NCBI GenBank assembly: GCA_052038965.1
Contig: JBQGDI010000058.1
Span: forward strand, 4,248-68,247
Origin: Candidatus Limnocylindrales bacterium
GTDB lineage: Bacteria; Chloroflexota; Limnocylindria; Limnocylindrales; CSP1-4
Reading direction: 5' to 3'
Length of the DNA: 64,000 nt
The notes under the pieces were generated by a model. The model was not told the origin of the DNA. It saw only the letters and a program-made list of their open reading frames with translations, and searched no databases. A program made the position numbers and the translations under genes. Shown here piece after piece: positions 7,955 to 22,325 of this stretch. The first letter of the stretch is position 1. Each line of letters starts with the position of its first letter.

Positions 7955-8203
7955 TCAGCCGCGTTTCGCGACGTTCGAGTCGGGATCGACCTCGATCTGG
8001 TGCCGGCGCGCCGCGGCCAGGATCTTCTTCCGTGCCCGCTCCTTAGCGGCCTTGCTCTGGAACTCGGTCTGGTTGAACCGAGCCATGGCGTTCCGGACGT
8101 GTGACTCGTCGTGGATCGGCAGATGGCCCTCGCCCTCGTCGTCGACATAGGCGAACTGGTCGTCGCGCAGCCGGTCGCGGGCCTTCTCGGTCAGCTCAGG
8201 CAC
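7955..8203 (-). CDS. Small conserved hypothetical protein (about 82 aa), translationally coupled to the His-rich protein
   Basis: GTG at 8203 preceded by GAGAGGAG, overlapping the upstream stop (GTGCCTGA). The hydrophilic sequence HLPIHDESHVRNAMARFNQTEF looks like a conserved actinobacterial DUF. Confidence 0.55.
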   Translation of the reverse strand: MPELTEKARDRLRDDQFAYVDDEGEGHLPIHDESHVRNAMARFNQTEFQSKAAKERARKKILAAARRHQIEVDPDSNVAKRG

Positions 8204-8495
8204 GACGCGGCTCCTCTCGCTCTGGCGTGGCCGGCGCGTCATGGTCGTGGACGTGGGCCTGGCCGTCGTGGTCGACGTCCTCGTCCTCCCGGCTGCGATC
8301 CTGGTGAGCGTGGATCAGCGGCGCGTGGTTGTGCGCGTGGCTGTGGTACGAGGAGCGGTGCTCGAACTCGCCGAGGGGGCCGCCCCGGTGATGGTGCGAG
8401 ACGTGGTAGTGGTCGTGCGTGTGGATCACGGCCTCGTGAGCGTGCTCGTGCTCGTCGTCGCCAACGACACGTTGCACGACCTGGCTCTGCTGCAT
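8196..8495 (-). CDS. Histidine-rich (about 30 % His) small protein, putative metal-binding/storage
   Basis: HEHAHEAVIHTHDHYHVSHHHRGG...SYHSHAHNHAPLIHAH...DVDHDGQAHVHDHD. 8-nt start/stop overlap with the downstream gene. Confidence 0.55.
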   Translation of the reverse strand: MQQSQVVQRVVGDDEHEHAHEAVIHTHDHYHVSHHHRGGPLGEFEHRSSYHSHAHNHAPLIHAHQDRSREDEDVDHDGQAHVHDHDAPATPEREEPRRA

Positions 8496-8643
8496 GGTCG
8501 GACACCTCCTGTCGCGACCAGCCTTGCACGAGCGGCCGGATCGGCCGGTTGCAGGCCGGCCGGTTCGGTTGCGGGTACCTCTCGACCCCGTAACGAGGCG
8601 GCGAGTGGGTCGATCGACGCCCCGCAGCCCGCGCCGCGATCCG

Positions 8644-9867
8644 TCAGCCGGTGGCCCGGTGCTCCTCGGGCTGCCGGAAGAGCGCGAGGGTCCGCCATGC
8701 CGTCCACCCTCCGGCGAGCGTCATGGCCGCGCAGAGGGCGCGGACGCCCCACCACGGCAGGTCCTTCGCCAGGAACGAGGGCAGTGGCAGGATCAGGTAC
8801 GGCGACGTCGCGACGACGTACCACAGCGTCACGAAGAACATCGTGCTGAGCGCGATGAACGGGCCCCGGAGTGACGGCACGAGGACCGCGAGCGGGGCGA
8901 GAAGCGGGATCGCGCCGTACAGGTACCGCTCGTGGACCCGCGTCGGCACGAAGTACAGAGCCAGCGCGACGAGCGAAGCGACGGCGAACAGGCCAACGAG
9001 GTCACGTCGCCGGCGAAGGAGCAGCAGGCTCCCGCCGATCGCCAGCACCGTCGCCGTCGTACCGACGTAGAGCCACGGTCCGTCGACGGTCTCGAAGCCG
9101 AAGAGCAGGCCCCACGGATTGAAGCCGTAGTGGGAGGCGTATGGATAGCGCCCGAACGTGTCCGCGATGATGGCCCGGTAGCCGAGCGGGTCGAGGCCAA
9201 GTGGCAGCAGCACGATCGCGCCGGTCAGCAGGGCCGCGAGCGCGACGATGGCCGCACGGCCGATCCCGTCAGCCGTTCGCAGCCAACCTGCCACGAGCCC
9301 GACGAGGACCATCGCCGCGACGCCGAACTGGGGCTTGACGAGGCCCGCCAGGGCCGCCAGGGCCCCGGCGGCGACGAGACCGCCCGAAGCCGCGGTGACG
9401 ATCGACACGACCATCGGGAGGGCTCCCATGCCGTCGACCTGGCCCCACGCCGGGCCGCTCAGGACGACCGCGGGATTCAGCAGGTATAGCGCCGCCGCCA
9501 CCGGTCCGCCCCCCGCCCCGGCCAGCCGCCGTCCGACGGCAAACAGGACGGCGCCCAACGCCAGGTCGAACGGAATCGACAGGACCCGGATGGCGGCCCA
9601 CAGGGGCGCACCGTCGAACGCCACGCCGAGCGGCCATAGCAGGTACAGCATCGCTGGGTAGTTCGCGTCCCCGCCGGCCGCGTAGTAGCCCCCGAGTCCG
9701 TGCTGCGCGAGGCCCTCGGCCCACTCCTCGAAGGCCTTGACGTCGCCGCCGTGCCCGGTGCCGAGCAGCCCGACCAGGCGGACGACGAGCGCGGCGGTGA
9801 GCACGACGACGAAGGCCCGCGCATCGTCGGCCGGCGACCACGGGACCCGCAGCCGCGGGAGGGTCAT
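8644..9867 (-). CDS. GT-C-fold integral membrane glycosyltransferase (DUF2029/PMT_2-like)
   Basis: 407 aa with about 10 TM segments. The early periplasmic loop has the D-x-K/FEEWAEG-type acidic motif typical of GT-C mannosyl/arabinosyltransferases. 16 nt downstream of kimA1. Confidence 0.65.
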   Translation of the reverse strand: MTLPRLRVPWSPADDARAFVVVLTAALVVRLVGLLGTGHGGDVKAFEEWAEGLAQHGLGGYYAAGGDANYPAMLYLLWPLGVAFDGAPLWAAIRVLSIPFDLALGAVLFAVGRRLAGAGGGPVAAALYLLNPAVVLSGPAWGQVDGMGALPMVVSIVTAASGGLVAAGALAALAGLVKPQFGVAAMVLVGLVAGWLRTADGIGRAAIVALAALLTGAIVLLPLGLDPLGYRAIIADTFGRYPYASHYGFNPWGLLFGFETVDGPWLYVGTTATVLAIGGSLLLLRRRRDLVGLFAVASLVALALYFVPTRVHERYLYGAIPLLAPLAVLVPSLRGPFIALSTMFFVTLWYVVATSPYLILPLPSFLAKDLPWWGVRALCAAMTLAGGWTAWRTLALFRQPEEHRATG

Positions 9868-9883
9868 GGCCGAGCGGTGGCCG

Positions 9884-12022
9884 TCACCGGGAGCCGGCGG
9901 GGTTCGCCGGGACGTGGTCCTCGGGGTGCTCGCGGCGGTAGGGCACGTTGACCACGACCGTGTACGGCCGTCCGAGGAGGGCCGCCCGCAGCCGCTTCGC
10001 GGACTGGTTGTAGAGGATCCGCTCCCACCAGCTCTTCGCGACGTATTCCGGGATCACGACGAACGTGATCGGGGCCTCCTTGTCGGCCGGCCACGCCCGA
10101 TCGAGGACGTCGAGGTAGGCGAGCATCGGCGCGACGAGCGCGCGATAGGGCGATTCGACGATCACGAGCGGCACGTCGGGAATCTGGCGCTCCCAGCGCT
10201 CGCGAACCCTGGCCGCCTCGTCGGGCTCGTCGGAGATGAGCACCGCGCGGACGTCCGGGGCGATGGATCGCCCGACGTTGATCGCCTGGACGACCGCCCG
10301 GTTGATGCCCGGGATCGGCACGATCGCCCGCTCCTCCCGTCGCGGTGCCGGGATCCTGGCGTCGGGCTGGATCGCCAGCTCCCGCGAAGAGGCGGCGTAC
10401 TGCCGGTGGATGAACAGCATCAGCCCGACGAGGATCGGGATGATGACCGCGACGATGAGCGAGGTCGGCGCCTTCGCGACGAGCACGACCACGAACACCA
10501 CGCTCGTGAGTCCCGCCCCGAAGGCGTTGATGCCCAACCGCCATTGCCAGCCCCGTGACCGTTCAGCCAGCCAGTGGCGGACCATGCCGACCTGCCCGAT
10601 CGTGAAAGCCAGGAACACGCCGACGGCGTACAGCGGGACGAGCGCGGTCGTGTGGCCACCGAACAGCACCACGAGCGAGATCGCCGCCACGCTCAGGATC
10701 ACGATCCCGGACGTGAACGCCAACCGATCGCCCCGGAAGCTGAACTGGCGTGGCATGTAGCCGTCGCGGGCGAGGATCGCGCCGAGGCGCGGGAAGGCGT
10801 TGAACGACGTGTTGGCGGCGAGGAAGAGGATCAGCGCGGTGAACGTCTGGAACAGGTAGAAGCCGATCGAGCCGTCACCGTAGGCGACCGCCGCGACCTG
10901 GCTGACGACGGTCTTGGGCGTCGGATGATCGATGGGCACGACTCCGAAGTTCGCGGCGACGAATGTGATCCCGATGAACAGCGTCCCCAGGAGGATCGCC
11001 ATCGCCGTCAGCGTCGCCGCGGCGTTCCGCGACTCCGGCGGCTTGAAGGCCGGGACCCCATTGGCGATCGCCTCGGTTCCGGTGAGGGCGACCGAGCCGG
11101 ACGCGAATGCGCGGAGCACCAGCAGCGCCGTCACGGCCTGCAGCGGCTCGTGCGCGCCGGGCAGGGGCGATGGCGGCATCTGGTGCTCGCCGAGGACGAC
11201 GATTCGGAAGGTCCCGATCGCGATCGCGAGCAGCGCGGACCCGACGAACAGGTACGTCGGGATGGCGAAGATGTTGCCCGATTCGCGGAGCCCGCGGAGG
11301 TTGCCGATCATGATCAGGATGATCGCGACGACCCCGATCTCGACCCGGATGTCTGTGAGAGCCGGGACCGCGGAGATGACCTGCTCGATGGCCGACGAGG
11401 TCGATACCGCGACGGTCATGACGTAGTCGACGAGCAGTGCGGCGGCCACGACGAGCGCCGTGATACCCGGCAGGTTCGCCTTGGCCACGGCGTAGTCGCC
11501 GCCGCCGGACGGGTACGCGTAGACCTCCTGGCGATAGCTGATCGACACGACGGTGAGGAGGAAGCCGATCGCGATCGCGACCGGCAGGCTCAGGAACAGC
11601 GCGCTCGCTCCGGCCAGGACGAGGACCCGCAGGATCTCCTCCGAGGCGTAGGCCGAGGAGCTGATCGCGTCCGAGCTGAAGATCGCGAGGGCCTTGACCT
11701 TCGATAGCCGCTCGGTGATCTCCTCGTGGATCGAGAGCGGGCGGCCGAACAGCATGCCGCGGACTCGGGCCAGCATCCGTCCGAGCCCGGTGCGTGGCGC
11801 CGAGGCGGCCGGCTTGGCGATGAGGGTGCCCTCGCCGCCGTAGCGGAAGTACGCCGCGTGGGGCCGTTCGACCCGAACGCGGCGGTCGCCGAGCTTGCGG
11901 CCCTTGAGCGAGCCGCCGGACGAAGGTGGGGTGTCGCTCACCGTGGGCCGCGGCGGGCGCGCAATTGCATCCGCGAAGGATCGCACGCGCGGCCCGGGGT
12001 CGCATGCGCCACGGCGTCGCAT
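9884..12022 (-). CDS. kimA: KimA-family K+ importer (APC superfamily with C-terminal cytoplasmic domain), paralogue 1
   Basis: Start at ATG 12022 (MRRRGACDP...), 15 nt after the fur stop; the ORF extends upstream in-frame to 12556. Motifs KALAIFSSDAISSSAYASEEI, YRQEVYAYPSGGGDYAVAKANLPG, NLRGLRESG, AFASGSVALTGTEAIANGVPAFKPPESRNAA and C-terminal YNQSAKRLRAALLGRP match my recollection of B. subtilis KimA (YdaO). Confidence 0.85.
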   Translation of the reverse strand: MRRRGACDPGPRVRSFADAIARPPRPTVSDTPPSSGGSLKGRKLGDRRVRVERPHAAYFRYGGEGTLIAKPAASAPRTGLGRMLARVRGMLFGRPLSIHEEITERLSKVKALAIFSSDAISSSAYASEEILRVLVLAGASALFLSLPVAIAIGFLLTVVSISYRQEVYAYPSGGGDYAVAKANLPGITALVVAAALLVDYVMTVAVSTSSAIEQVISAVPALTDIRVEIGVVAIILIMIGNLRGLRESGNIFAIPTYLFVGSALLAIAIGTFRIVVLGEHQMPPSPLPGAHEPLQAVTALLVLRAFASGSVALTGTEAIANGVPAFKPPESRNAAATLTAMAILLGTLFIGITFVAANFGVVPIDHPTPKTVVSQVAAVAYGDGSIGFYLFQTFTALILFLAANTSFNAFPRLGAILARDGYMPRQFSFRGDRLAFTSGIVILSVAAISLVVLFGGHTTALVPLYAVGVFLAFTIGQVGMVRHWLAERSRGWQWRLGINAFGAGLTSVVFVVVLVAKAPTSLIVAVIIPILVGLMLFIHRQYAASSRELAIQPDARIPAPRREERAIVPIPGINRAVVQAINVGRSIAPDVRAVLISDEPDEAARVRERWERQIPDVPLVIVESPYRALVAPMLAYLDVLDRAWPADKEAPITFVVIPEYVAKSWWERILYNQSAKRLRAALLGRPYTVVVNVPYRREHPEDHVPANPAGSR

Positions 12023-12036
12023 TCGCCGCGCGAGAT

Positions 12037-12504
12037 TCAGCGGTCGCGACAGGCCTCGCAGCGGCCCTCGATCGACAGGTGCTCGAGCGAGACCGCGAAG
12101 CCACGCCGCCGCTCGAGGTCCTCGACGAGGGCCACGAGCTCGGATGGCGCCAGGTCCCAGCGTCCACCGCAGGCGGAGCAGACGAGGTGACCGTGCGTGG
12201 CGGATGGGCGGACGTGGAACTCGGTCCGACCGTCGGGCCCGTGGGAGTGGCTGACCAGCCCGAGCTCCTCGAGGACGTCGAGCGTCCGGTAGACCGTCGA
12301 GGGCGTCGTGGACGGATCGATCTGGCGACAGCGATCGACCAGCGTCGCGCCCGTCACGTGGCCGTCGACGCGAGCCAGGACGTCGAGGATGACGCCCCGC
12401 TGGGACGTCCAGCGCAGCCCTCGCTCGTGGAGGCGCCGACGCACCTCCGCCCACCGATCGCCGGGGATCGAGGGCAGCCGACGCGTCGCAGAGCCGGCCG
12501 TCAT
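12037..12504 (-). CDS. Fur-family metalloregulator (candidate Nur/Zur-type)
   Basis: Winged helix plus metal-site cysteines/histidines (RWTSQRGVILDVL...TVYRTLDVLEELGLV...HGHLVCSACG...GRCEAC). Start ATG 12504 overlaps the NiCoT stop as ATGA. Confidence 0.8.
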   Translation of the reverse strand: MTAGSATRRLPSIPGDRWAEVRRRLHERGLRWTSQRGVILDVLARVDGHVTGATLVDRCRQIDPSTTPSTVYRTLDVLEELGLVSHSHGPDGRTEFHVRPSATHGHLVCSACGGRWDLAPSELVALVEDLERRRGFAVSLEHLSIEGRCEACRDR

Positions 12505-13457
12505 GCCCCCAGCCCGAGGCCCCTGAGCCACTCGTCGATCGACGGCAGCCGGGCATCGAGGCCGAGCAGGAAGACCGTGCCGATGACCAGGCTGAAGGTG
12601 CCGGCGACGACGCCGATCACGATGTAGATCCGCTGCCGAAGGCGGCTCGCGATGAAGCCGGTCGCGGTGATGAGGACGACGATCGAGTTCGCGATCAGCA
12701 GCCCGACGATGAACGCGACCATCATCGGGATCCCGAGGCCGTGCTGGGCGGCGCCGCCGATCGCGGCGATGAGCAGGACCTGCGTCCCGGTCTCGGCGCC
12801 GATGCCGTGGATCAGGCCGACCCCGAAGGCCGTCTTCGGGCCGTACGAGCTCATCTCCATCGGGTCGACGTGCTCGTGGCCGTGGAGGCGCGCCTGGAAC
12901 CGGCGCCAGGCGTAGCGAGCCGAGTCGAAGACGAGCATCCAGCGGCTCCGCAGCCGGAACGCGACGCCGTGCCGGGCGTACTGGTAGAGCGAGACGAAGA
13001 CCCAGATCCCGAGAAGGAGCAGCGTCAGCCCGACGATCGGGCCCATGACCTGGTCGACCCAGTCCGGCAGGATCGCCCCGAACAGCAGAGCAAGCAGGCC
13101 GAGGACGGCGACGACGGCGGCGTGGCCCAGCGCGTACAGCGAACCGAGCAGCAGCGCGCGCTTCTGCTCCTCGACCAGGCGCGGCCTCGGTGGGGCCGCC
13201 GGATGGTCGGCGGCTCCGTGCTCCCCGCCGTGGGCCCGGACCTCGGTCGGGCCGCCGTGGGCGTGTTGATGCGGATGCCGGGCAACGTGGACGGCCTCGT
13301 GGCCGAGCTCCGCGGCATCGGCCGTCGCGGTCGTCGATGTGACGTCGGTGATCGCCGCCAGATGGTCCCAGTCGAAGCCGTGCCGGATCCCCAGCACGAG
13401 CGCCGTCGAGATCAGCCCAAGCGCACCGCCGGTCGCCGCATCGGCCAGGAAGTCCAC
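12501..13457 (-). CDS. NiCoT (HoxN/NixA)-family nickel/cobalt permease
   Basis: Signature HX4DH in TM2 (IRHGFDWDHLAAITD), second motif GLIHGIGAETGTQV, His-rich cytoplasmic loop (HVARHPHQHAHGGPTEVRAHGGEHGAADH). Start set at GTG 13457; the ORF continues to a TTG at 13568, which would overlap kimA2 by 52 nt. Confidence 0.8.
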   Translation of the reverse strand: MDFLADAATGGALGLISTALVLGIRHGFDWDHLAAITDVTSTTATADAAELGHEAVHVARHPHQHAHGGPTEVRAHGGEHGAADHPAAPPRPRLVEEQKRALLLGSLYALGHAAVVAVLGLLALLFGAILPDWVDQVMGPIVGLTLLLLGIWVFVSLYQYARHGVAFRLRSRWMLVFDSARYAWRRFQARLHGHEHVDPMEMSSYGPKTAFGVGLIHGIGAETGTQVLLIAAIGGAAQHGLGIPMMVAFIVGLLIANSIVVLITATGFIASRLRQRIYIVIGVVAGTFSLVIGTVFLLGLDARLPSIDEWLRGLGLGA

Positions 13458-13478
13458 GGCGGCATGATCGCCGTTATC

Positions 13479-13493
13479 GCAACAGGTTGCAAC
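13479..13493. promoter_or_regulatory. Candidate Fur-family (Nur-like) operator: GCAAC-AG-GTTGC palindrome inside TTGCAAC-type repeats, 22-36 nt upstream of the NiCoT start
   Basis: Read directly: ..atcGCAACagGTTGCAACaag.. in the 58-nt kimA2-NiCoT spacer. It resembles the tTGCaa-N5-ttGCAA Nur box of Streptomyces. Confidence 0.4.
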
Positions 13494-13515
13494 AAGGGTC
13501 CCACAATGGCTCGCG

Positions 13516-15573
13516 TCAGCCCGCCGTCGCCTCCGCGGTTGCCCGCTCGCGCTGATACGGCACGTCAACGACGACGGTGTGGGGCCGGCCGAGCAGGGCG
13601 CCGCGCAGCCGCTTCGCAGACTGGTTATAGAGCGCCCGCTCCCACCAGTGTTGGGCGACGAACTCCGGAACCACGACGAACGTCACCGGAATGTCGCCCT
13701 CGGCCGATTCGGCCGCGTCGAGGACGTCGAGGTACGCCAGCAGCGGTCCGACGAGGGCCCGGTACGGTGACTCGACGATCACGAGCTCGACGTCCGGCAG
13801 CTGGCGTTCCCAGCGTCCCCGGACCGCCTCGGCGGCGACGGGATCATCCGTCACGAGGACGGCATGGACATCGCGGCCGATGGAGCGACCGACGTTCACG
13901 GCCTGGACGGCCGCCCGATCGAGGCCGGCCACCGGGACGACGATGCGCTCCCGGCGTCGCGGACCCCGGATCACGACGTCGTCGCGCACGGCCAGCTGGC
14001 GAGCGGTCGAGCGGTATTGCCGGCGAATGAAGAGCATCCCGACGATGAGTGCGGGAATGAGGACCAGCACGACCCACGCGCCGAGCATGAACTTCGCCGC
14101 GGCGACTTCGACCGCGACGACGCCGGTCGTGAGTGCCCCGATCCCATTGATGAGCGCCTTCGTCTGCCACCCCGGGGTGCTCGCCCGGTGACGCCACCAC
14201 CGCCGGACCATGCCGCCCTGGCTGAGCGTGAAGGCGACGAACACGCCCACGGTGTACAGCGGGATCAGGCTCGTCACGCTGCCAGCGAAGCCGATCACGA
14301 GCGCGATCGCGACGATCGCCAGCACGACGATCCCGCCGTTGAACGCCAGGCGGTCGCCCCGGAACTGGAAGACCCGGGGCAGGAACGAGTCGCGCGCCAG
14401 GATGCTCGACAGCCTCGGAAAGTCGGCGAACGAGGTGTTGGCGGCCAGGATGAGCAGCACGGCGGTCGATACCTGGATCACGTAATGGAATGGCGTGCCG
14501 CCGCCCACGAACGCGCGCGTGAGCTGGCTGACGACCGTCTCCTGTTCGCTCGGATCCGGCAAGATCCCGAGCTGGCTCGAGAGGAAGCTCATGCCGAGGA
14601 AGATGGCGCCGAAGCAGGCGCCCATGATCACGATCACTCGAGCCGCATTGCGCGCCTCCGGCGGCTTGAACGCCGGCACCCCGTTGGATACCGCCTCGGT
14701 GCCGGTCAGGGCGACCGAGCCGGAGGCGAACGCCCGCAGGATCAGCAGCAACCCGAGCGGCTCGGCGGCGCTCTCGACCCAGCCGGGCGGTGGCGAATTC
14801 GCCGGCATGGTCCCCGTCGCATAGCGCAGTAGGCCGAAGCCCAGGAGCCCGAGCATCGACGCCAGGTAGACGTAGGTCGGTACGCTGAACACGAGGCCGC
14901 TCTCGCGGACGCCTCTGAGGTTGACGAACGCGATCGCCGCGATGAGCCCGGCGCCGAGAACCACGCGAGCCTCGAACAGCTCCGGCCAGATCGACGTCAG
15001 GGCCGCGACGCCGGCGGCGATCGAGACGGCGACGGTGAGGACGTAGTCGGTCAGCAGGGCCGCCGCCGCGGTCAGGCCCGGCAGCGTGCCGAGGTTGTCG
15101 CTGGCCACGATGTACGAACCGCCGCCGCTGGGATAGGCCGCGATCGTCTGGCGGTAACTGGTGACGACGATGGCGAGGACGACGACGATGCCGATCGTGA
15201 TCGGCATCGTGAGCACCAGCGCCCCCGCGCCGGCGAGGACGAGCACCCGCATGATCTCCTCGGTCGCGTATGCCGAGGACGAGATGTTGTCCGACGCGAA
15301 GATCGACAGGCCGGGCACGACGCCCAGCCGTTCGTGCCATTCCTCGTGGTTCGACAGCGGCCGGCCGAAGAGCAGCGCCCTCAGCCGCGACGCGGCCCGG
15401 CCAACTGGGGTGCGCGGTCGCGAGGCCTCGGGCTTCGCGACCAGGGCCCCTCGTCCGACATACCGGAAGAACGGTTCGTGGGGACGGTGCACCCGGACGC
15501 GTCGGTCGCCGGGCTTGCGACCGGCTCGCGCGGTCGGGGCGGGCGAGGCAGGGCTGGAGTCGGACGCGGGCAT
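13516..15573 (-). CDS. kimA: KimA-family K+ importer, paralogue 2
   Basis: Start ATG 15573 (MPASDSS...GRKPGDRRVRVHRPHEPFFRY). Same motif set as paralogue 1 (SIFASDNISSSAYATEEI, YPSGGGSYIVASDNLG, NLRGVRESG, YNQSAKRLRGALLGRP). Confidence 0.85.
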   Translation of the reverse strand: MPASDSSPASPAPTARAGRKPGDRRVRVHRPHEPFFRYVGRGALVAKPEASRPRTPVGRAASRLRALLFGRPLSNHEEWHERLGVVPGLSIFASDNISSSAYATEEIMRVLVLAGAGALVLTMPITIGIVVVLAIVVTSYRQTIAAYPSGGGSYIVASDNLGTLPGLTAAAALLTDYVLTVAVSIAAGVAALTSIWPELFEARVVLGAGLIAAIAFVNLRGVRESGLVFSVPTYVYLASMLGLLGFGLLRYATGTMPANSPPPGWVESAAEPLGLLLILRAFASGSVALTGTEAVSNGVPAFKPPEARNAARVIVIMGACFGAIFLGMSFLSSQLGILPDPSEQETVVSQLTRAFVGGGTPFHYVIQVSTAVLLILAANTSFADFPRLSSILARDSFLPRVFQFRGDRLAFNGGIVVLAIVAIALVIGFAGSVTSLIPLYTVGVFVAFTLSQGGMVRRWWRHRASTPGWQTKALINGIGALTTGVVAVEVAAAKFMLGAWVVLVLIPALIVGMLFIRRQYRSTARQLAVRDDVVIRGPRRRERIVVPVAGLDRAAVQAVNVGRSIGRDVHAVLVTDDPVAAEAVRGRWERQLPDVELVIVESPYRALVGPLLAYLDVLDAAESAEGDIPVTFVVVPEFVAQHWWERALYNQSAKRLRGALLGRPHTVVVDVPYQRERATAEATAG

Positions 15574-15605
15574 GAGGGCGCGATGTGGCCGCCGCGATCC
15601 TTTGG

Positions 15606-17648
15606 TCAAGCGGATGCGCTGGCCGCGGCAGCCGGGCGCTCGCCGCGTCGATATGGGGCATCGACGACGACCGTCTGCGGGCGGCCCAGGAGGGCGCGGC
15701 GGAGTCGGGCGGCCGACTGGTTGTACAGCAGCCCGTCCCACCAGCGCCGAGGCGCGTACTCTGGCAGCACGACATAGGTGAGCACGGCCGCGCCCGCCGG
15801 CTGGCCTTGGTCGAGCAGGTCGAGATACCGGAGCAGCGGATCGACGAGCACCAGCGACGGTGTCTCGATGAGGTCGAGAGGGACGTCCGGGATGCGGTCG
15901 CTCCAGTCGGACCGCATGGCCAGGGCGGCGGCCCGGTCGTCCGAGACCAGGACGGCTCGGACGTCGGTGGCGAGCGACCGGGCGATGTTCTCCGCCTGGA
16001 CGGCCGCACGATCGATCCCGGGCACCGGCACGATGGCCCGCTCCCGTCGGTGCGGCGGTTCGATGACCGCGTCGGCGGGAATGGCGAGGCGGGCCGCGGA
16101 CGCCCGGTACTGTCGGTTGATGAACAGCATCATGCCTACCAGGGCCGGGATGAGGATCACGACCAGGTAGGCACCACCGAAGAACTTCTCGTAGACGACG
16201 ATGGCCAGGACGACGATCGTCAGGATCGCCCCGAGGCCGTTGATGCCGAGCCGGAGCCGCCACCCATCCCCGCGCACCCGCAGCCAGTGCCGGACCATCC
16301 CGACCTGGGACAGCGAGAAGCACACGAACACGCCGACCGCGTACAGCGGGATCAGGAGCGTGGTCGTGCCGGCGAAGAGCGCCACGAGCCCGGCCGCGAT
16401 GGCCGCCAGCAGCACGATCCCCCACGAGTAGGCGAGGCGGTCGCCGCGGAAGCTGAATTGGCGCGGCATGTAGCCGTCGATCGCGAGCAGGTTCGCCAAC
16501 CGTGGGAAGGCGTTGTACGAGGTGTTCGCGGCGAGGAACAGGATCAGCATCGTGGCGACGAGGAACAGCGCGTGGAGGGGCGTGCCGAATCCGTAGACCG
16601 CCCCCGCCACGAGCGAGATGACCGACGGATAACCGCCGACCGACGGCACGACGGCATACGCGATTGCGACGACCGAGATCCCGATGAAGATCACGCCCAG
16701 GAGGACTGCCATGGCGGTCATCGTGTTTGCGGCGTTGCGGGATTCCGGCGGCTTGAAGGCCGGCACGCCGTTGGCAATCGCTTCCACGCCAGTCAGCGCG
16801 ACCGACCCGCTGGCGAACGCCTTGAGGAGCAGCACCAGGGCGAGGGGCTCGAGCCCGAACGATTCGGCGTTCGGCTGCGCCGGCAGCGGGCTGGTGGTCC
16901 CGGTGGCGATGTTGAGGCCGCCGAGGACCACGATGCCGAGCGCCAGCGAGACGAACACGTACGTCGGGACGGCGAAGATGTTCCCGGACTCCCGCAGCCC
17001 CCGCAGGTTCGCGATCGTCATGAGGCTGATGACGATCGCGGCGATCAGGACCTTGTGGGAGCCCGCGGCCGGCGCGAGCGAGGCGAGCTGATCGAGGGCC
17101 GACGAGGTCGACACGGCAACGGTCATGACGTAGTCGATCAGGAGCGCTGCGGCCGCAACCAGGCCCAGGAGTGGGTTGAGCTCCGTTCGGGCGACCGCGT
17201 ACGCTCCGCCGCCGTTCGGGAAGGCCTTGCAGACCTGCCGATAGCTCAGGGCGACGATCGCGAGCAGCAGCGCGATCGCGATCGAAACCTCGATCGATGC
17301 GAACAGCGCAGCCGCACCGGCCAGGACGAGGACCCGCAGGATCTCCTCCGAGGCGTAGGCCGAGGAGCTGATGGCGTCCGAGCTGAAGATCGCGAGGGCC
17401 TTGATCTTGGAGAGGCGCTCGCCGATCTCCTCGTGGATCGACAGCGGCCGACCGAAGAGGATCGCCCGGACCCGGGCGAGCATCCGACCGGGGGCGGTGC
17501 GCGGCGCCGAGGCAGCCGGGCGCGCGACCAGCGTCCCTTCGGCGCCGTACCGGAAGAAGGGCTCATGGGGCCGCGCGACGCGAACGCGTCGGTCCCCGGG
17601 CTTTCGGCCGCGACGCGGCCGCGCGAGTCCTGCTTCGACGGTCTCCAT
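15606..17648 (-). CDS. kimA: KimA-family K+ importer, paralogue 3
   Basis: ATG 17648 (METVEAGLARPRRGRKPGDRRVRVARPHEPFFRY); an alternative GTG lies at 17666. About 75 % identical to paralogue 1 over the N-terminal 100 aa. Confidence 0.85.
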   Translation of the reverse strand: METVEAGLARPRRGRKPGDRRVRVARPHEPFFRYGAEGTLVARPAASAPRTAPGRMLARVRAILFGRPLSIHEEIGERLSKIKALAIFSSDAISSSAYASEEILRVLVLAGAAALFASIEVSIAIALLLAIVALSYRQVCKAFPNGGGAYAVARTELNPLLGLVAAAALLIDYVMTVAVSTSSALDQLASLAPAAGSHKVLIAAIVISLMTIANLRGLRESGNIFAVPTYVFVSLALGIVVLGGLNIATGTTSPLPAQPNAESFGLEPLALVLLLKAFASGSVALTGVEAIANGVPAFKPPESRNAANTMTAMAVLLGVIFIGISVVAIAYAVVPSVGGYPSVISLVAGAVYGFGTPLHALFLVATMLILFLAANTSYNAFPRLANLLAIDGYMPRQFSFRGDRLAYSWGIVLLAAIAAGLVALFAGTTTLLIPLYAVGVFVCFSLSQVGMVRHWLRVRGDGWRLRLGINGLGAILTIVVLAIVVYEKFFGGAYLVVILIPALVGMMLFINRQYRASAARLAIPADAVIEPPHRRERAIVPVPGIDRAAVQAENIARSLATDVRAVLVSDDRAAALAMRSDWSDRIPDVPLDLIETPSLVLVDPLLRYLDLLDQGQPAGAAVLTYVVLPEYAPRRWWDGLLYNQSAARLRRALLGRPQTVVVDAPYRRGERPAAAASASA

Positions 17649-17732
17649 GGCACCAACGTGCGCCACGGACCCAAGAGGGATCGGCGCTCGACAGCAGCTC
17701 CGACCCTTAAGTTCGCCTCAGGTTTCCGACGC

Positions 17733-18455
17733 TCACCCTTCCGGAGCGCGGATGCGGTAGCCGACGCCTGGCTCGGTGACGATCAGGTCACGGAGCGCGC
17801 CCTCGTGGTCGGCCGCCGCCAGCTTGCGACGGAGCTGGCTGACGTGGACGTACACGTAGCTGTCGGCGTCCTGGTAGGCCGTGCCCCAGACCGCCCGCAA
17901 GAGGCGACCCTTCGTCACGATCCGCCCGAGCTCGCCGAGCAGGACGCGCAGGATCTCGAACTCGCGGGGCGTGAGCTCGACCGTCTGGCCGTCGACGAGG
18001 ACCTCGTGGTTAGGGCCATCGAAGACGAGCGGGCCCACACGAATGCGGCCCTGGCTGTCGGCGGCCGGACCCGGTGATCGGCGCAGGGCGACCCGGAGGC
18101 GCGCGTGCAGCTCGTCGAGGCCGAACGGCTTGGTCACGAAGTCGTCGGCACCGAGCTCGAGGGCCTCGACCTTCTCACGCTCGGCGTAGCGGCCGGACAG
18201 GATCACGATCGGCGTGCCCGCGTCGCGTCGAATCCGCCTGATGACTTCGAGCCCGTCGAGGTCGGGCAATCCCAGGTCGAGCAGCACGACGTCAGGCCGC
18301 GATGCCTCCCAGCGCTCGAGGGCCGTGCGCGCGTCGATCGCCTCGACGGTCCGGTAGCCGCGAGCCCCCAGCTCGCGCAGCAGCGCGCGCCGGGTCTCGT
18401 CGTCGTCCTCGACGACCAGCACGGACGGGCCACCCGGGGGCCGCGGGGGGATCAT
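17733..18455 (-). CDS. kdpE: KdpE-like OmpR-family response regulator
   Basis: Receiver (VLVVEDDDETRRAL...LLDLGLPDLDG...LSGRYAEREKVEALELGADDFVTKPFGLDELHARLRVALRR) aligns closely with E. coli KdpE as I recall it. 4-nt overlap with kdpD. Confidence 0.85.
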   Translation of the reverse strand: MIPPRPPGGPSVLVVEDDDETRRALLRELGARGYRTVEAIDARTALERWEASRPDVVLLDLGLPDLDGLEVIRRIRRDAGTPIVILSGRYAEREKVEALELGADDFVTKPFGLDELHARLRVALRRSPGPAADSQGRIRVGPLVFDGPNHEVLVDGQTVELTPREFEILRVLLGELGRIVTKGRLLRAVWGTAYQDADSYVYVHVSQLRRKLAAADHEGALRDLIVTEPGVGYRIRAPEG

Positions 18456-20050
18456 TCCGGCGCGTTGGGCAGCAGCTCCGCCGGCACCGACGCAGCCGGC
18501 AGCAGCAGCTCGATGGCCAGCCCGCCAAGCTCGCTCCGCTGCGCGCTGGCGCGGCCGCCCATCGCCTCGACCAGCCCACGCACGACGGCCAGGCCGAGCC
18601 CGGTCCCACGCGCCGGGGCCGGGTTGCGCCCGCCGCCGTGATCGCGGTCGCCGATGCGGACGAACGGGTCGAAGATGCGCTCCTGCGCCGCCTCGGGCAC
18701 CCCCGGTCCACCATCCTCGACGATCAGCCGGACCATGCCGCTGTCGTCCCGGGACGCGGTGATCCGCACCGTCGCGGCTGCCGGCGCGAACTTGGCAGCG
18801 TTGTCGAGCAGGTTCAGGAGGGCCTGGCCCAGGAGGACCGGATCGACGCGGACGGCCAACGGTGGGACGTCGATGATCATGGGTCGATCGTGGAGCGGCC
18901 CGCCGAACCGTTCGACCGCTTGGCCGACAAGGTCATCGAGCTCGAACACGTCGACGTCGGCCCGCAACGCGCCGGCCTCGATCCGACCCAGGTCCAACAG
19001 GTTGGCCACGAGCCGGTCGAGGTAGCGGACCTGTCGCTCGATCGCCTCGGCGCTCGCCGCGCGGGCCTCGTCGTCCAGGCCACTCTCCGGGCGGAGCGAG
19101 CCGGCCGCCGCGCGGATCGCGGCCAGCGGGGTCCGGAGGTCGTGCGAGACCAGTTGCAGCAGGGCGCTCTTGAGGGCGTCGCTCTGGCGGGCGATCTCGG
19201 CGTCGCGGGCCTCGGTGGCGAGCCGATCCTGGACCAGCAGCTGGCCGATCTGGTCGGCCGCCGCGCCCAGCAGGCGAGTCGCCGACCGATCGGGCAGGGC
19301 CGCGGATCGATCGCGAAGCGCCCAGATGGAGCCGAGCGCATCGCCGCCGGCCTCGATCCGCACGCGATACGTCTCGAGCGGCGCGGTCGCGGCCATCGAG
19401 CGCCCACCCATCCCCGTGTGCACCCGGACCCAGCGGGCCGGCTCATCGCCGGGCATCCGACGAAGGACCTGGTGGAGCCCCGAGGTCGGCGTGCCGGCCC
19501 CGCGACCAGTCGCGGCCTCGCCGGCCCGGGTCGCGACGCGCTCGGCTGCGTCGTCCTCTCCGAGGGCGATCCAGAGCGAGCGCATCTCGGTTGCGGCCCG
19601 CAACAGCTCGGCGAGATCCGGCAGCGCCTCGCGGGTCGAAGATCGCGTCGCGAGCGCCCGGCTGAGCTGGAACAGCTCGCGGGCCTCGCGCTCGCGGGCC
19701 GTTGCCGTGACGGTCTGGGCCCGCTGGAGCGCCGCCAGCTGACCGACGACCAGGCCGACGAACAGGAGCAGGGCGAGGCTCAGCCACTCACCCGGGTCAC
19801 TGATCGTGAACGTGTGGTACGGCTCGGTGAAGAGGTAGTCGTAGGTGGCGATCCCCATGACCGCCGTGGCCACACCGCCCGCGGTCCCGGACAGGAGGGC
19901 CGCCGCGACGACCGCGATCAGGTAGACGGGCGAGGCGTTGGGGATCCCTACGCGCTCCTCGAGCAGCCAGACCAGGGCGGTGGCCCCGACGAGGGTCGGC
20001 AGGGCCACCGCGAGCAGTCGCGCGACCCGGGCGACGCCCAGCTGCGGCAC
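18452..20050 (-). CDS. kdpD: Truncated KdpD-like sensor kinase (DUF4118 4-TM + GAF-like + HisKA + HATPase_c; lacks the N-terminal KdpD and Usp domains)
   Basis: GTG start. Membrane module GIPNASPVYLIAVVAAALL...YDYLFTEPYHTFTI resembles KdpD DUF4118. H-box SHDLRTPLAAI. No 350-aa N-terminal domain and no upstream kdpFABC. Confidence 0.8.
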   Translation of the reverse strand: MPQLGVARVARLLAVALPTLVGATALVWLLEERVGIPNASPVYLIAVVAAALLSGTAGGVATAVMGIATYDYLFTEPYHTFTISDPGEWLSLALLLFVGLVVGQLAALQRAQTVTATAREREARELFQLSRALATRSSTREALPDLAELLRAATEMRSLWIALGEDDAAERVATRAGEAATGRGAGTPTSGLHQVLRRMPGDEPARWVRVHTGMGGRSMAATAPLETYRVRIEAGGDALGSIWALRDRSAALPDRSATRLLGAAADQIGQLLVQDRLATEARDAEIARQSDALKSALLQLVSHDLRTPLAAIRAAAGSLRPESGLDDEARAASAEAIERQVRYLDRLVANLLDLGRIEAGALRADVDVFELDDLVGQAVERFGGPLHDRPMIIDVPPLAVRVDPVLLGQALLNLLDNAAKFAPAAATVRITASRDDSGMVRLIVEDGGPGVPEAAQERIFDPFVRIGDRDHGGGRNPAPARGTGLGLAVVRGLVEAMGGRASAQRSELGGLAIELLLPAASVPAELLPNAPE

Positions 20051-20114
20051 ATGTCGATGCTAGGCCCTCGCGGTGCGATGGTCCGCGGCGCGCCGGGAAC
20101 GGAGCGAACCGAGA

Positions 20115-20366
20115 TCAGTGGCCCTGGCCGGCCTCGCGGACCTGGTCATCGGACGCCGAGCGGCCCTCGCGGTGGCCGTCCGGCGTGGCGCCGCGCTCGG
20201 ACTCGGGCACGGGCCCTCGCGCCGGCCCTGGCTGTGTGGCCACCGCGGACACTCGCCGGTCGCGGCGGCCGAGCCCACCCGGGATCGTCTCGGTTGCACG
20301 CTCGGGCTTGCGGCCGATGTAGGCGCCGGCGTCGCGGCGCGGCTCGGTTTGGCGTCGATCGGTCAT
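20115..20366 (-). CDS. Small hydrophilic hypothetical protein (83 aa) immediately upstream of kdpD
   Basis: ATG 20366 with GGGAGG at 6 nt spacing. Highly charged sequence MTDRRQTEPRRDAGAYIGRKPERATETIPGG..., 64 nt upstream of the kdpD start. Confidence 0.5.
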   Translation of the reverse strand: MTDRRQTEPRRDAGAYIGRKPERATETIPGGLGRRDRRVSAVATQPGPARGPVPESERGATPDGHREGRSASDDQVREAGQGH

Positions 20367-20473
20367 GGGTTGCCTCCCGGGTGTCGGATCCAGGCTCCTA
20401 CCCTGGCGCGCGACCCGCTGACGACGGGACGGTCCCGCGACCCGGTGGCTATCGCGCTCGTTGCAGCCCGGAC

Positions 20474-21634
20474 TCAGGCGAAGAGCCGGCCGTGGGCCCG
20501 CATGACCTCGACCAGCCGGTCGTGGGGCAGGCGGTGCGCGACGATCCCGTCCCGGCCGGTCATCGTCTCGGCGGCGACGAGGGCGTTCGCGATCGCCTCC
20601 TCGGTCGCCTCCACGACCGCCTCGAAGAGCGGGTCGAGGGCCGTGTCGACGAGCGCCCGCAGCTCGACGACGCCGTGCATCGCCGGCGGCGCCTCGCCGG
20701 CCGGCAGGCCGCGGTTGCCGGTGGCGAAGGCGATGAACAGGTCGCCCGACGATGTCGCGCCGAGGCCGCCGGTTCGAGCCAGCCCGAGACCGGCCCGCTG
20801 GGCCAGACGAGCACACTGCCCCGGGAGCAGCGGTGCATCGGTCGCGACGACGACGATGATCGAGCCCTGCCGGCCGGGGGCGATGCCTTCGTCGAAGGCA
20901 ATCCCGCGGCGGGGACTCTCCCATGGCGACGGCACCTCGGTGATCGGGATCGCCTCACCGACGGCCACGCCATCGACCCGGAGCAGCCCGCGACGACCGT
21001 AGTTCGCCTGGACCAGGACGCCGACGGCCCAGCCCCCAAGCCCCGGCGGGATAACCCGCGACGAGGTCCCGATTCCGCCCTTGAACTCATGGCACAGCAT
21101 CCCGGTGCCGCCGCCGACGGAGCCCTCGGCCACCGGTCCCGCGCGAAGGTCGGCCAGCGCGGCGTCGACGTGCTCCGGGCGGACGTGCTGGCCGGCGATG
21201 TCCGACAGCCGCCCGTCCCACGTTTCGCCGACCACCGGCAGCGACCAGGAGGCGGAGCCCGGGGTGCGCGCCCGCGTGGCATGGTTGATGAGGGTGTCCC
21301 GGACGATCCCGAGCGAATGGGTGTTCGTGATGGCGATCGGGCTGTGGAGCAGCCCCGTTTCGCGGATCCACTCGAGGCCGGTCATGTCGCCGTTGCCGTT
21401 GAGGATGTGACAGCCCGCGAACACGGGTTCCGTCCAGATGTCGCCGTCGTGCGGATCGACGACCGTGACCCCGGTGCGGACGGGCCCGCGGCCCACGACG
21501 AGCGGCCCCTCGCCCTCGATGATCGTCGCGTGGCCGACTCGGACACCGGGCACGTCGGTGATCGCGTTGTCCGTCCCCGGCCGACCCTCGCCGATCCGGA
21601 TTCCGAGATCACGCGCCCGAGGCCGACCCAGCAT
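20474..21634 (-). CDS. DmpA/OAT-family (peptidase S58/P1) L-aminopeptidase/D-Ala-esterase-like protein
   Basis: ATG 21634 with GAGGG RBS. About 386 aa with GxGxxGS/T-type self-processing region. 8 nt after the MgtC stop. Confidence 0.8.
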   Translation of the reverse strand: MLGRPRARDLGIRIGEGRPGTDNAITDVPGVRVGHATIIEGEGPLVVGRGPVRTGVTVVDPHDGDIWTEPVFAGCHILNGNGDMTGLEWIRETGLLHSPIAITNTHSLGIVRDTLINHATRARTPGSASWSLPVVGETWDGRLSDIAGQHVRPEHVDAALADLRAGPVAEGSVGGGTGMLCHEFKGGIGTSSRVIPPGLGGWAVGVLVQANYGRRGLLRVDGVAVGEAIPITEVPSPWESPRRGIAFDEGIAPGRQGSIIVVVATDAPLLPGQCARLAQRAGLGLARTGGLGATSSGDLFIAFATGNRGLPAGEAPPAMHGVVELRALVDTALDPLFEAVVEATEEAIANALVAAETMTGRDGIVAHRLPHDRLVEVMRAHGRLFA

Positions 21635-21644
21635 CGGGACGCCC

Positions 21645-22325
21645 TCAGTCGGCGTGCGAGCTGGAGAGGATGTCGACGCCTTCGAGGCGGGAGATCTCCT
21701 CGAGGGCGGCGGCGATCGACGCCGGGGTCCGGCCACGGACGGTGAGATCGGCCCGGTACAGGCTCCGGCCCTGGCGCTGGGTCGCAATCGCGCCGATCTC
21801 CAGCTTCTCGCCTCGGAGGATCGCGGTGACCTGTCCCAGCAGGTCCACGCGGTCCATCTGGAGGCGGAGCTGCAGCTCCGGCTGTGCGGTGCCGTGGAGG
21901 CGCTCGGCGAGCGCGTTGATTGGCCACAGGCTGACGAGGATGACCGCCGCCGCGACGGTGGCGATGACATGCTCTCCGGCCCCGGCCGCCATGCCGACCG
22001 CGGAGGTCGCCCAGAGGCTCGCGGCGGTCGTGAGGCCGCGGATGACGATCCCGTCCTTGAGGATCGCGCCCGCACCGAGGAAGCCAATGCCGGACACGAT
22101 CTGGGCCGCGATCCGGGTCGGGTCGATGGGCGCCGCCACGGTCCCGCCTTCGAACCCGTGGGCCGACAGCACGGTGAACAGGGCCGAGCCGAGGGCCACC
22201 AGCATGTGCGTCCGGAGGCCCGCGGGGTGGCCGTGGATCTCCCGCTCGAAGCCGATCCCGAGGCCGAGCAGGCTGGCGATGATGAGCCGGACTGAGAGAT
22301 CGAGCTGGAGGCCGACGTCGATCAT
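21645..22325 (-). CDS. mgtC: MgtC/SapB-family membrane protein
   Basis: N-terminal 4-5 TM MgtC domain (LIIASLLGLGIGFEREIHGHPAGLRTHMLVALGSALFT) plus C-terminal ACT-like domain. Start ATG 22325. Confidence 0.8.
   Translation of the reverse strand: MIDVGLQLDLSVRLIIASLLGLGIGFEREIHGHPAGLRTHMLVALGSALFTVLSAHGFEGGTVAAPIDPTRIAAQIVSGIGFLGAGAILKDGIVIRGLTTAASLWATSAVGMAAGAGEHVIATVAAAVILVSLWPINALAERLHGTAQPELQLRLQMDRVDLLGQVTAILRGEKLEIGAIATQRQGRSLYRADLTVRGRTPASIAAALEEISRLEGVDILSSSHAD

Follow-up and report, generated by a model that had tools for sequence, protein, structure and literature searches.

The 64-kb window analysed here (64,000 nucleotides of the Candidatus Limnocylindrales contig JBQGDI010000058.1, with a G+C content of about 72%) carries on its minus strand a series of KimA potassium importer genes and, set among them, a membrane permease gene followed by the gene of a Fur-family regulator. 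The kimA3 and kimA2 paralogues precede the permease, the regulator overlaps the permease end, and a third paralogue, kimA1, follows the regulator. A palindromic site lies in the gap between kimA2 and the permease. The original prediction for this DNA, made from the letters alone, had read the permease, the regulator and kimA1 as one operon; all three genes are present where it had placed them, on the minus strand. The present analysis concerns the permease, the regulator and the site in front of them, which together probably constitute a nickel-uptake unit. Coordinates of the features are collected in the table below.

Features of the permease-regulator locus and of its surroundings, in window positions
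Feature	Position	Strand	Remarks
Permease, 318 aa	12501..13457	minus	GTG start 13457, stop 12501
HX4DH signature HGFDWDH	13362..13382	minus	permease residues 26-32
His-rich loop	13182..13307	minus	permease residues 51-92, 9 His
ATGA overlap	12501..12504	minus	permease stop and regulator start
Fur-family regulator, 155 aa	12037..12504	minus	
Putative operator, 20 bp	13475..13494	minus	TGTTGCAACCTGTTGCGATA
Candidate promoter, predicted	13464..13492	minus	-35 TTGCAA 13487..13492, -10 GATCAT 13464..13469
Intergenic gap between kimA2 and permease, 58 nt	13458..13515		
kimA2	13516..15573	minus	tandem KimA paralogue, directly upstream of the candidate nickel unit
kimA3	15606..17648/17666	minus	KimA paralogue
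KdpE-like response regulator	17733..18455	minus	
Truncated KdpD-like histidine kinase (DUF4118, HisKA, HATPase)	18452..20050	minus	
kimA1	9884..~11986	minus	start uncertain: GTG 11986, GTG 11941 or ATG 12022
Conserved 5' element of kimA1	11966..11988	minus	GCGTGCGATCCTTCGCGGATGCA; part of kimA1, not of the nickel unit
GT87-like membrane protein	8644..9867	minus	

The permease and the regulator are found together across a wide range of species. A scan of one genome per species yielded 380 relatives of the permease, and the best 80 of them (56-84% identity, nearly all labelled Chloroflexota) were examined. A Fur orthologue adjoins the permease in 63 of these 80 species loci, either directly downstream on the same strand or divergently upstream. 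In the window the permease stop and the regulator start share an ATGA, and an (A/G)TGA stop/start overlap occurs in 47 of 63 tandem loci elsewhere, which upholds the translational coupling proposed for this pair in the original prediction. Three loci of the sample are filed under other names, L004 (DATHRO010000017.1) under Deferrimicrobiaceae, L012 (DATJGH010000211.1) under the Patescibacteria group and L072 (JAICUY010000015.1) under Steroidobacteraceae. Their gene order and permease identity of 63-84% fit Limnocylindria loci, and the three are probably mis-binned.

The second gene of the pair encodes a Fur-family protein, as predicted, with a match to PF01475 over residues 27-141 that scores 72.8 bits against a gathering score of 23.1. 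Its best solved relative is Nur of Streptomyces coelicolor (3EYY; 75.7 bits, E = 3.3e-20, 36% identity over 130 residues), and the next-best Fur-family structure follows 20 bits below, at 55.8 bits. The Ni-site of Nur is formed by H70, H72 and H126, all of which are essential and exclusive to Nur orthologs; the M-site, formed by H33, H86, H88 and H90, also takes zinc (PMC2691836). A Nur mutant with the H86A substitution was barely affected and still bound DNA, and His81 has been proposed to substitute for H86 in the M-site (PMC2691836). The Ni-site residues correspond to H86, H88 and H142 of the window regulator. Three of the four M-site histidines are kept as well (H33 as H49, H88 as H104, H90 as H106), the position of H86 is occupied by A102, and Nur H81 corresponds to H97. 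Both CxxC pairs (Cys4) and the DNA-contacting tyrosine and arginine (Tyr56 and Arg57 of Nur) are retained. Across the Fur genes adjoining the permease, taken from 65 loci for residue conservation, the Ni-site triad, H33/H88/H90, Cys4, Y56 and R57 are invariant, and the H81-equivalent histidine is found in 64. H86 is the sole M-site residue that is not kept, its position being variable in the family. The regulators further differ from Nur in having Ala or Ser in place of Asp37, and the position of Nur E101 holds Asp in the window regulator and Glu in 58 of the 65 family members. The NCBIfam equivalog models for Fur, PerR and Zur give weak matches to the regulator, all far below their cut-offs. 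Zur- and PerR-like functions are disfavoured because the Nur-exclusive histidine triad is kept, the comparison with Zur and PerR themselves being one of sub-threshold model scores. The regulator appears to be a Nur-type nickel-sensing candidate and not a PerR-like protein. A comparison of metal-site residues had been named beforehand as the way to decide on the suggested Nur-like sensor, and it favours Nur over PerR/FurS. Two distant loci encode, downstream of the pair, a second and distant Fur-family paralogue with 31% identity to the window regulator (L064, 4917-5297; L082, 8386-8709).

The upstream palindrome previously noted at 13479..13493 as a putative operator is real, and represents the centre of a conserved 20-bp inverted repeat. 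The repeat has the family form TATTGCAAC-NN-GTTGCAATA, i.e. TTGCAA-N4-TTGCAA, with the consensus atgcTATTGCAAC-NN-GTTGCaATAAcg across related loci. A position weight matrix was built from 47 sites and used, at a threshold of 12 bits, to search up to 220 nt upstream of the permease. All 64 loci with an adjacent Fur gene, 43 tandem and 21 divergent, were found to carry the site upstream of the permease, against a background of no matches in 1.67 million positions. Loci without a detectable Fur gene carry it in 8 of 16 cases. The window copy reaches 32 bits, while no other site in the 64 kb scores as much as 9 bits; an exact pattern search of the window also returned a single match. In L023 and L105, two loci of the KimA-bearing clade with a permease and no Fur gene, the operator is missing too; regulator and operator therefore co-vary. 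The palindrome is likely the operator of the regulator. As in S. coelicolor, a Nur-type protein would face two TTGCAA hexamers in front of a predicted nickel-uptake gene. The Streptomyces protein, however, acts at other loci, on nikABCDE, nikMNOQ and sodF, whereas the window holds one operator only and the target in the Chloroflexota is a secondary permease of the same operon, coupled or divergent.

The permease is identical to an existing public protein (P0001). Both features that had been noted in it, the HX4DH match and the loop with nine histidines, are present. The HX4DH pattern alone is weak, as it gives 11 matches in long open reading frames of the window; it counts here because HGFDWDH aligns to the signature region of the nickel transporter models (positions 2-33 of the NicO profile and 3-27 of TIGR00802) and is invariant in the family. 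In a deeper set of 63 distant relatives with 32-61% identity, R25, H26, G27, D29, D31 and H32 show little or no variation. Further near-invariant motifs are Y108-x-x-G111-H112 (YAxGH), H217-G218-x-G220-A221-E222-T223-x-x-Q226 (IHGIGAETxTQ) and N257 (SN). The four motifs parallel the NiCoT signatures of HoxN, NixA, NhlF and NicT, namely HX4DH in a broken membrane helix, and GH, G-x-(D/E)-T-x-T-(E/Q) and (D/N)-(T/S) in the equivalent helices. The His-rich loop is likewise shared with NiCoT proteins. Its His53, 57, 63, 65, 67 and 76 are invariant in 24 close relatives, and the long loop is missing from most of the distant relatives, which are about 250 aa in length. Searched with a profile, 1.84 billion cluster representatives (50% identity clusters) yielded only 978 relatives of the permease at E <= 0.001.

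Curated models recognise this family faintly. NicO (PF03824) matches the permease over residues 13-44 only, with 25.8 bits against a cut-off of 27.7. All 63 distant relatives match NicT, 60 match HoxN/NixA and five match RcnA, in each case weakly and far below the cut-offs; the RcnA efflux model PRK10019 has no match to the window permease. An AlphaFold2 model built on the deeper alignment (predicted local distance difference test score, pLDDT, 85.1; predicted template modelling score, pTM, 0.81) contains six membrane helices in a 3+3 arrangement, the first helix of each half being broken at the His motifs, and hydropathy gives six helices too. An earlier model from the 24 close relatives was poor (pLDDT 60.6) and was discarded. 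A search for related solved structures returned none except a marginal match to CcdA (DsbD/LysE superfamily). Six helices and an association with nickel or cobalt are shared with the UreH and RcnA members of the superfamily, and the His-rich loop with RcnA. UreH genes adjoin urease, hydrogenase or sodN genes (PMC2667541), a neighbourhood not seen around the permease described here. By its motifs and scores the permease is a NiCoT-related protein of a small family of its own and not a curated HoxN/NixA NiCoT. The HoxN/NixA type assigned to it in the original prediction agrees with the HX4DH motif and the weak family matches; it does not agree with the helix number or with the scores, and most relatives also differ from NiCoT proteins in their length and in the lack of the long loop. 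The protein is predicted to import Ni(II) (or cobalt), because its relatives lean to importer models and because it appears to be controlled by a metal-activated repressor.

The operator overlaps a candidate promoter of the sigma-A type. In the window, TTGCAA is followed after 17 nt by GATCAT and, 6 nt further on, by the GTG start of the permease. This geometry recurs in the clade with KimA genes: in 23 of about 28 loci, the distance from the first T of TTGCAA to the first in-frame start is exactly 35 nt. Without exception, the sequence at +23..+28 fits the pattern nAnnnT (CATCAT, GATCAT, CATGCT, CATGAT, CACCAT, AATACT). The permease start predicted from the promoter geometry coincides with an independent gene call in L001. 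One sub-branch has TAGCAT within the operator flank, likewise 6 nt before the start. In distant loci TTGACA occupies a constant position 22 nt upstream of the TAT of the operator, and the operator therefore covers the -10 region there. In the window it covers the -35 hexamer and the spacer, a placement that points to repression. The promoter would yield a leaderless mRNA.

We consider it probable that the segment 12037..13494 is an autoregulated nickel-uptake unit consisting of a promoter, an operator, a leaderless bicistronic mRNA, a permease and a Nur-type regulator. Nickel as both effector and substrate, the direction of import, control by repression and a leaderless start are all deduced from sequence. 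In such a unit, the sigma-A-type promoter overlapped by the 20-bp inverted repeat would drive a leaderless transcript, the first cistron of which encodes the six-helix permease, and the second the regulator, whose translation would be coupled to that of the permease at the ATGA overlap. Sufficient cytoplasmic Ni(II) would fill the Nur-specific site (His86/His88/His142) together with the common site. The Ni-loaded dimer would then bind TTGCAA-N4-TTGCAA, cover the -35 hexamer and the spacer, and shut off the synthesis of the permease as well as its own. When nickel is scarce, the repressor would be released and the permease made. The KimA genes would have been assembled around an older permease-regulator locus in one clade of Limnocylindria; kimA1 might receive read-through from the nickel promoter but would stand outside the conserved unit.

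Several observations weigh against this interpretation. The permease falls below the cut-offs of every named nickel-transporter model (29.6 bits against 333 for TIGR00802 and 38.8 against 450 for NicT). It has six helices instead of the eight transmembrane segments of NiCoTs (PMC2667541). Its substrate and transport direction are predictions only, and cobalt is a possible substrate as well, though no B12 riboswitch is present. Genes for urease, [NiFe]-hydrogenase or nickel superoxide dismutase were not found in the window by motif search and do not recur beside the pair in the 80 loci; therefore, nickel is indicated by the regulator site and by family resemblance only. The operator has a 6-4-6 spacing and not the 6-5-6 spacing of the published Nur box, tTGCaa-N5-ttGCAA (PMC2691836), so that TTGC-N8-GCAA stands against TTGC-N9-GCAA. 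The hexamers are the same as in the Nur box, but with a spacer of 4 bp instead of 5, DNA recognition would not be identical to that of Nur. The promoter hexamers match 8 of 12 consensus positions, which is just under the scan threshold, and the promoter was not called; the consensus scan of 9700..18600 for promoters and terminators returned nothing on the relevant strand. Finally, 58 nt separate the unit from the upstream kimA2, no terminator was detected among them, and read-through from upstream could bypass the operator.

The flanking KimA proteins have the features of potassium transporters. KimA1 matches B. subtilis KimA (6S3K) over residues 5-604 of 607 with E = 5.8e-141, a full-length match that confirms the KimA assignment. 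The three paralogues are 54-61% identical to each other and 39-42% identical to B. subtilis KimA over 600 residues. The K+ site of KimA comprises D36, Y43, T121, S125, T230 and Y377, with E233 involved in proton coupling and D117 in trans-inhibition (PMC6994465); all eight residues are identical in KimA1, KimA2 and KimA3. The cyclic di-AMP (c-di-AMP) pocket comprises R337, P479, H579, N580, Q581 and S582 (PMC10284832). R337, P479, N580, Q581 and S582 are kept, along with L461, and all three proteins have Tyr in place of H579 and Ser or Thr in place of V457. The proteins appear to be ordinary K+/H+ symporters, with no hint of another substrate. Unlike B. subtilis KimA, they are extended at the N-terminus by about 80 residues (..GRKLGDRRVRVERPH..), in which the pattern ..GRK(L/P)GDRRVRV.RPH..(Y/F)FRY..G.L(I/V)AKP.AS.PRT.. 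is shared by the three paralogues (11760..11941 in kimA1, for example). They also differ in being encoded by three tandem copies after a truncated KdpD-like kinase and a KdpE-like regulator, and in having a lineage-specific 5' element on kimA1 and no ydaO riboswitch upstream. An Rfam scan of 8000..22000 at E <= 1 gave no c-di-AMP (ydaO), B12 or NiCo riboswitch, and one chance microRNA match.

The 5' end of kimA1 is organised differently from what had been proposed. The 15-nt gap between the regulator and kimA1 was based on a start at ATG 12022, which lies 14 nt from the regulator stop but is not conserved in relatives, and was rejected on that ground. The conserved start candidates are GTG 11986, which falls inside a 23-nt element, and GTG 11941, and the gap amounts to 50 to 95 nt. 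The element, GC(A/G)TGC(G/C)ATCCTCTGCGGATGCA, is common to all 15 clade loci examined. Copies elsewhere include those at L001, 9478-9500; L005, 7413-7435; and L092, 1556-1578. The window copy has two substitutions and is the one match in the window, with none in shuffled sequences. The element contains two start codons in different frames, and either the (A/G)TG of its left arm or the ATG of its right arm is in frame, depending on the genome. Where the left arm is in frame, downstream length differences are multiples of three. An exact-match metagenome scan returned 31 occurrences, 24 of them directly 5' of a kimA1-type gene; the other seven were dismissed as chance matches inside unrelated coding DNA of low-GC contigs. 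Among the 24, the element follows kimA2, with neither permease nor Fur gene, in L092, L095 and L099, and in L105 it is preceded, together with kimA1, by a permease that lacks a Fur gene; the latter arrangement is also seen in L023. As every kimA1-type gene has it directly on its 5' side, whatever lies further upstream, the element belongs to kimA1. A hairpin was considered for it and dropped (z between +1.0 and -2.2, folds that depend on the variant, no compensatory changes), and it matches no Rfam family. Folding of the RNA between the regulator and kimA1 gave z = -0.89.

The gene order of the locus invites another reading, put forward in the original prediction, in which a single functional operon made up of permease, regulator and kimA1 links nickel (or cobalt or zinc) status to potassium uptake, or in which KimA1 carries some other cation. 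The genes lie on the same strand, and the consensus scan found no terminator-like or promoter-like site in the 50-95 nt between the regulator and kimA1. Since no promoter is evident there, kimA1 may well receive its transcripts by read-through from the preceding gene, in the window including those from the nickel promoter, and by geometry alone kimA1 could be co-transcribed with the pair. Within one clade, 9 GTDB species and about 20 metagenome contigs keep the triad, which in L002, L004, L006 and L009 occurs without any other KimA gene nearby. On the other side, the linkage does not extend beyond that clade. The count was restricted to the 57 species loci whose downstream flank measures 3 kb or more: 9 of them, all with at least 71% permease identity to the window, encode KimA downstream of the permease, while the other 48, with permease identity of up to 70.6%, have the pair without KimA. 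The peptidase S58 gene that stands upstream in L002 and L006 often precedes the permease in more distant loci too, and by virtue of this shared neighbour the permease-regulator locus appears to predate the KimA genes that surround it. Clustering of neighbours across the 80 loci recovered sulfite-oxidase-like, peptidase S58, FabI, aldehyde dehydrogenase and ABC genes. Moreover, kimA1 and its element can do without the pair, standing directly after kimA2 or after a Fur-less permease in the five loci given above; the weight-matrix scan detected no operator near kimA1, which has its separate conserved 5' element instead; and KimA1 keeps every residue of the K+ site, of proton coupling and of trans-inhibition, along with most c-di-AMP residues, so that a mis-assigned substrate finds no footing. 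The KimA link appears to be a clade-specific gene order and not a conserved coupling. Coupling between nickel and potassium is not supported by the comparative evidence, and the single-operon reading seems unlikely.

Two further alternatives retain the permease-regulator unit and change its function. The permease could be an RcnA-like nickel/cobalt exporter of the NicO superfamily, with the Fur protein activating it, or relieving its repression, at metal excess. RcnA-type efflux proteins belong to the same superfamily and have six helices and a His-rich loop, RcnA models find weak matches in 5 of the 63 relatives, and transport direction is not readable from sequence. RcnA, however, is an exporter under the control of RcnR and is not known to have an HX4DH motif, the signature of the NiCoT importers; the window permease has no RcnA match, and its relatives resemble NicT and HoxN/NixA far more often. 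The operator, too, takes the position of a repressor site, over the -35 hexamer and spacer or, in distant loci, over the -10 region, and repression of uptake genes is the usual effect of metal-bound Fur-family proteins (PMC2691836). Export is accordingly regarded as improbable. It is also conceivable that the regulator senses zinc, cobalt, iron, manganese or peroxide and that the permease carries the corresponding metal. The affinity of the Nur M-site for zinc, the weak Fur, PerR and Zur matches and the Asp at the E101 position of the window regulator would be compatible with such a change of effector. Yet those matches are all far below cut-offs, the Nur-exclusive histidine triad is complete in 65 of 65 regulators, with histidine at the H81 position in 64 and glutamate at the E101 position in 58, and the operator hexamer is that of Nur. 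A metal other than nickel, or peroxide, is very improbable as the signal, and the nickel-uptake unit is the interpretation we prefer.

The surroundings of the unit show features of their own. In the block at 17733..20050, the kinase retains the KdpD membrane domain DUF4118 and is missing the N-terminal KdpD/Usp sensor part. The KdpE-like regulator overlaps the upstream kinase by 4 nt and lies directly upstream of kimA3-kimA2, and the same block of kinase and regulator precedes KimA genes in L001, L003, L005, L007 and other loci. This arrangement suggests that a KdpDE-like system controls KimA genes here instead of a kdp operon, and the KimA array of the window is probably under such control. 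In the interval that separates the response regulator from the first KimA gene, a stretch at 17667..17732 contains the conserved sequences ..CCTCTTGG..GCGCACGCTCGAAGCGTG.., with conserved equivalents in L003, L011, L074, L085 and L095, and may represent the promoter or operator of the array. Downstream of kimA1, the minus strand encodes at 8196..8495 an open reading frame of 99 aa with 21 His and 20 Asp/Glu residues. Its G+C content at third codon positions (0.87) is coding-like, a GGAGG lies 8 nt before its ATG, and it overlaps a DUF6582 open reading frame (7955..8242) by 47 nt. It has no Pfam match and is 59-65% identical to counterparts in L092, L094 and L101, located a few kb downstream of kimA1. 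Lying near the nickel unit, it could encode a protein that binds or stores metal.

A bolder proposal for kimA1 would make the Nur-box promoter the main source of its transcript in this clade, with a high-affinity potassium importer repressed by nickel, and the 23-nt element a new cis-regulatory element. We hold this to be unlikely. If true, the element would act as a translation-initiation gate or as the operator of an unknown regulator, setting the expression of kimA1 independently of the host operon.

Nur-type nickel sensing has been characterised in Streptomyces, in the Actinobacteria. The unit described here would take an already known type of system into a new phylum, with Candidatus Limnocylindria of the Chloroflexota as its host, and a full-text search of the available papers found none that treats Nur or nickel homeostasis in Limnocylindria or elsewhere in the Chloroflexota. 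In at least 63 uncultured Chloroflexota species the defining nickel site is accompanied by a matching operator and by a dedicated permease. The locus also provides a caution, in that tight same-strand packing beside KimA genes resembled functional coupling until comparison across species identified it as the gene order of one clade. The six-helix HX4DH permeases form a small family with no solved structure and no name in curated annotation models. The operator, one base pair shorter between Nur hexamers, would offer a natural test of the published model in which the Ni-site sets the geometry of DNA recognition.

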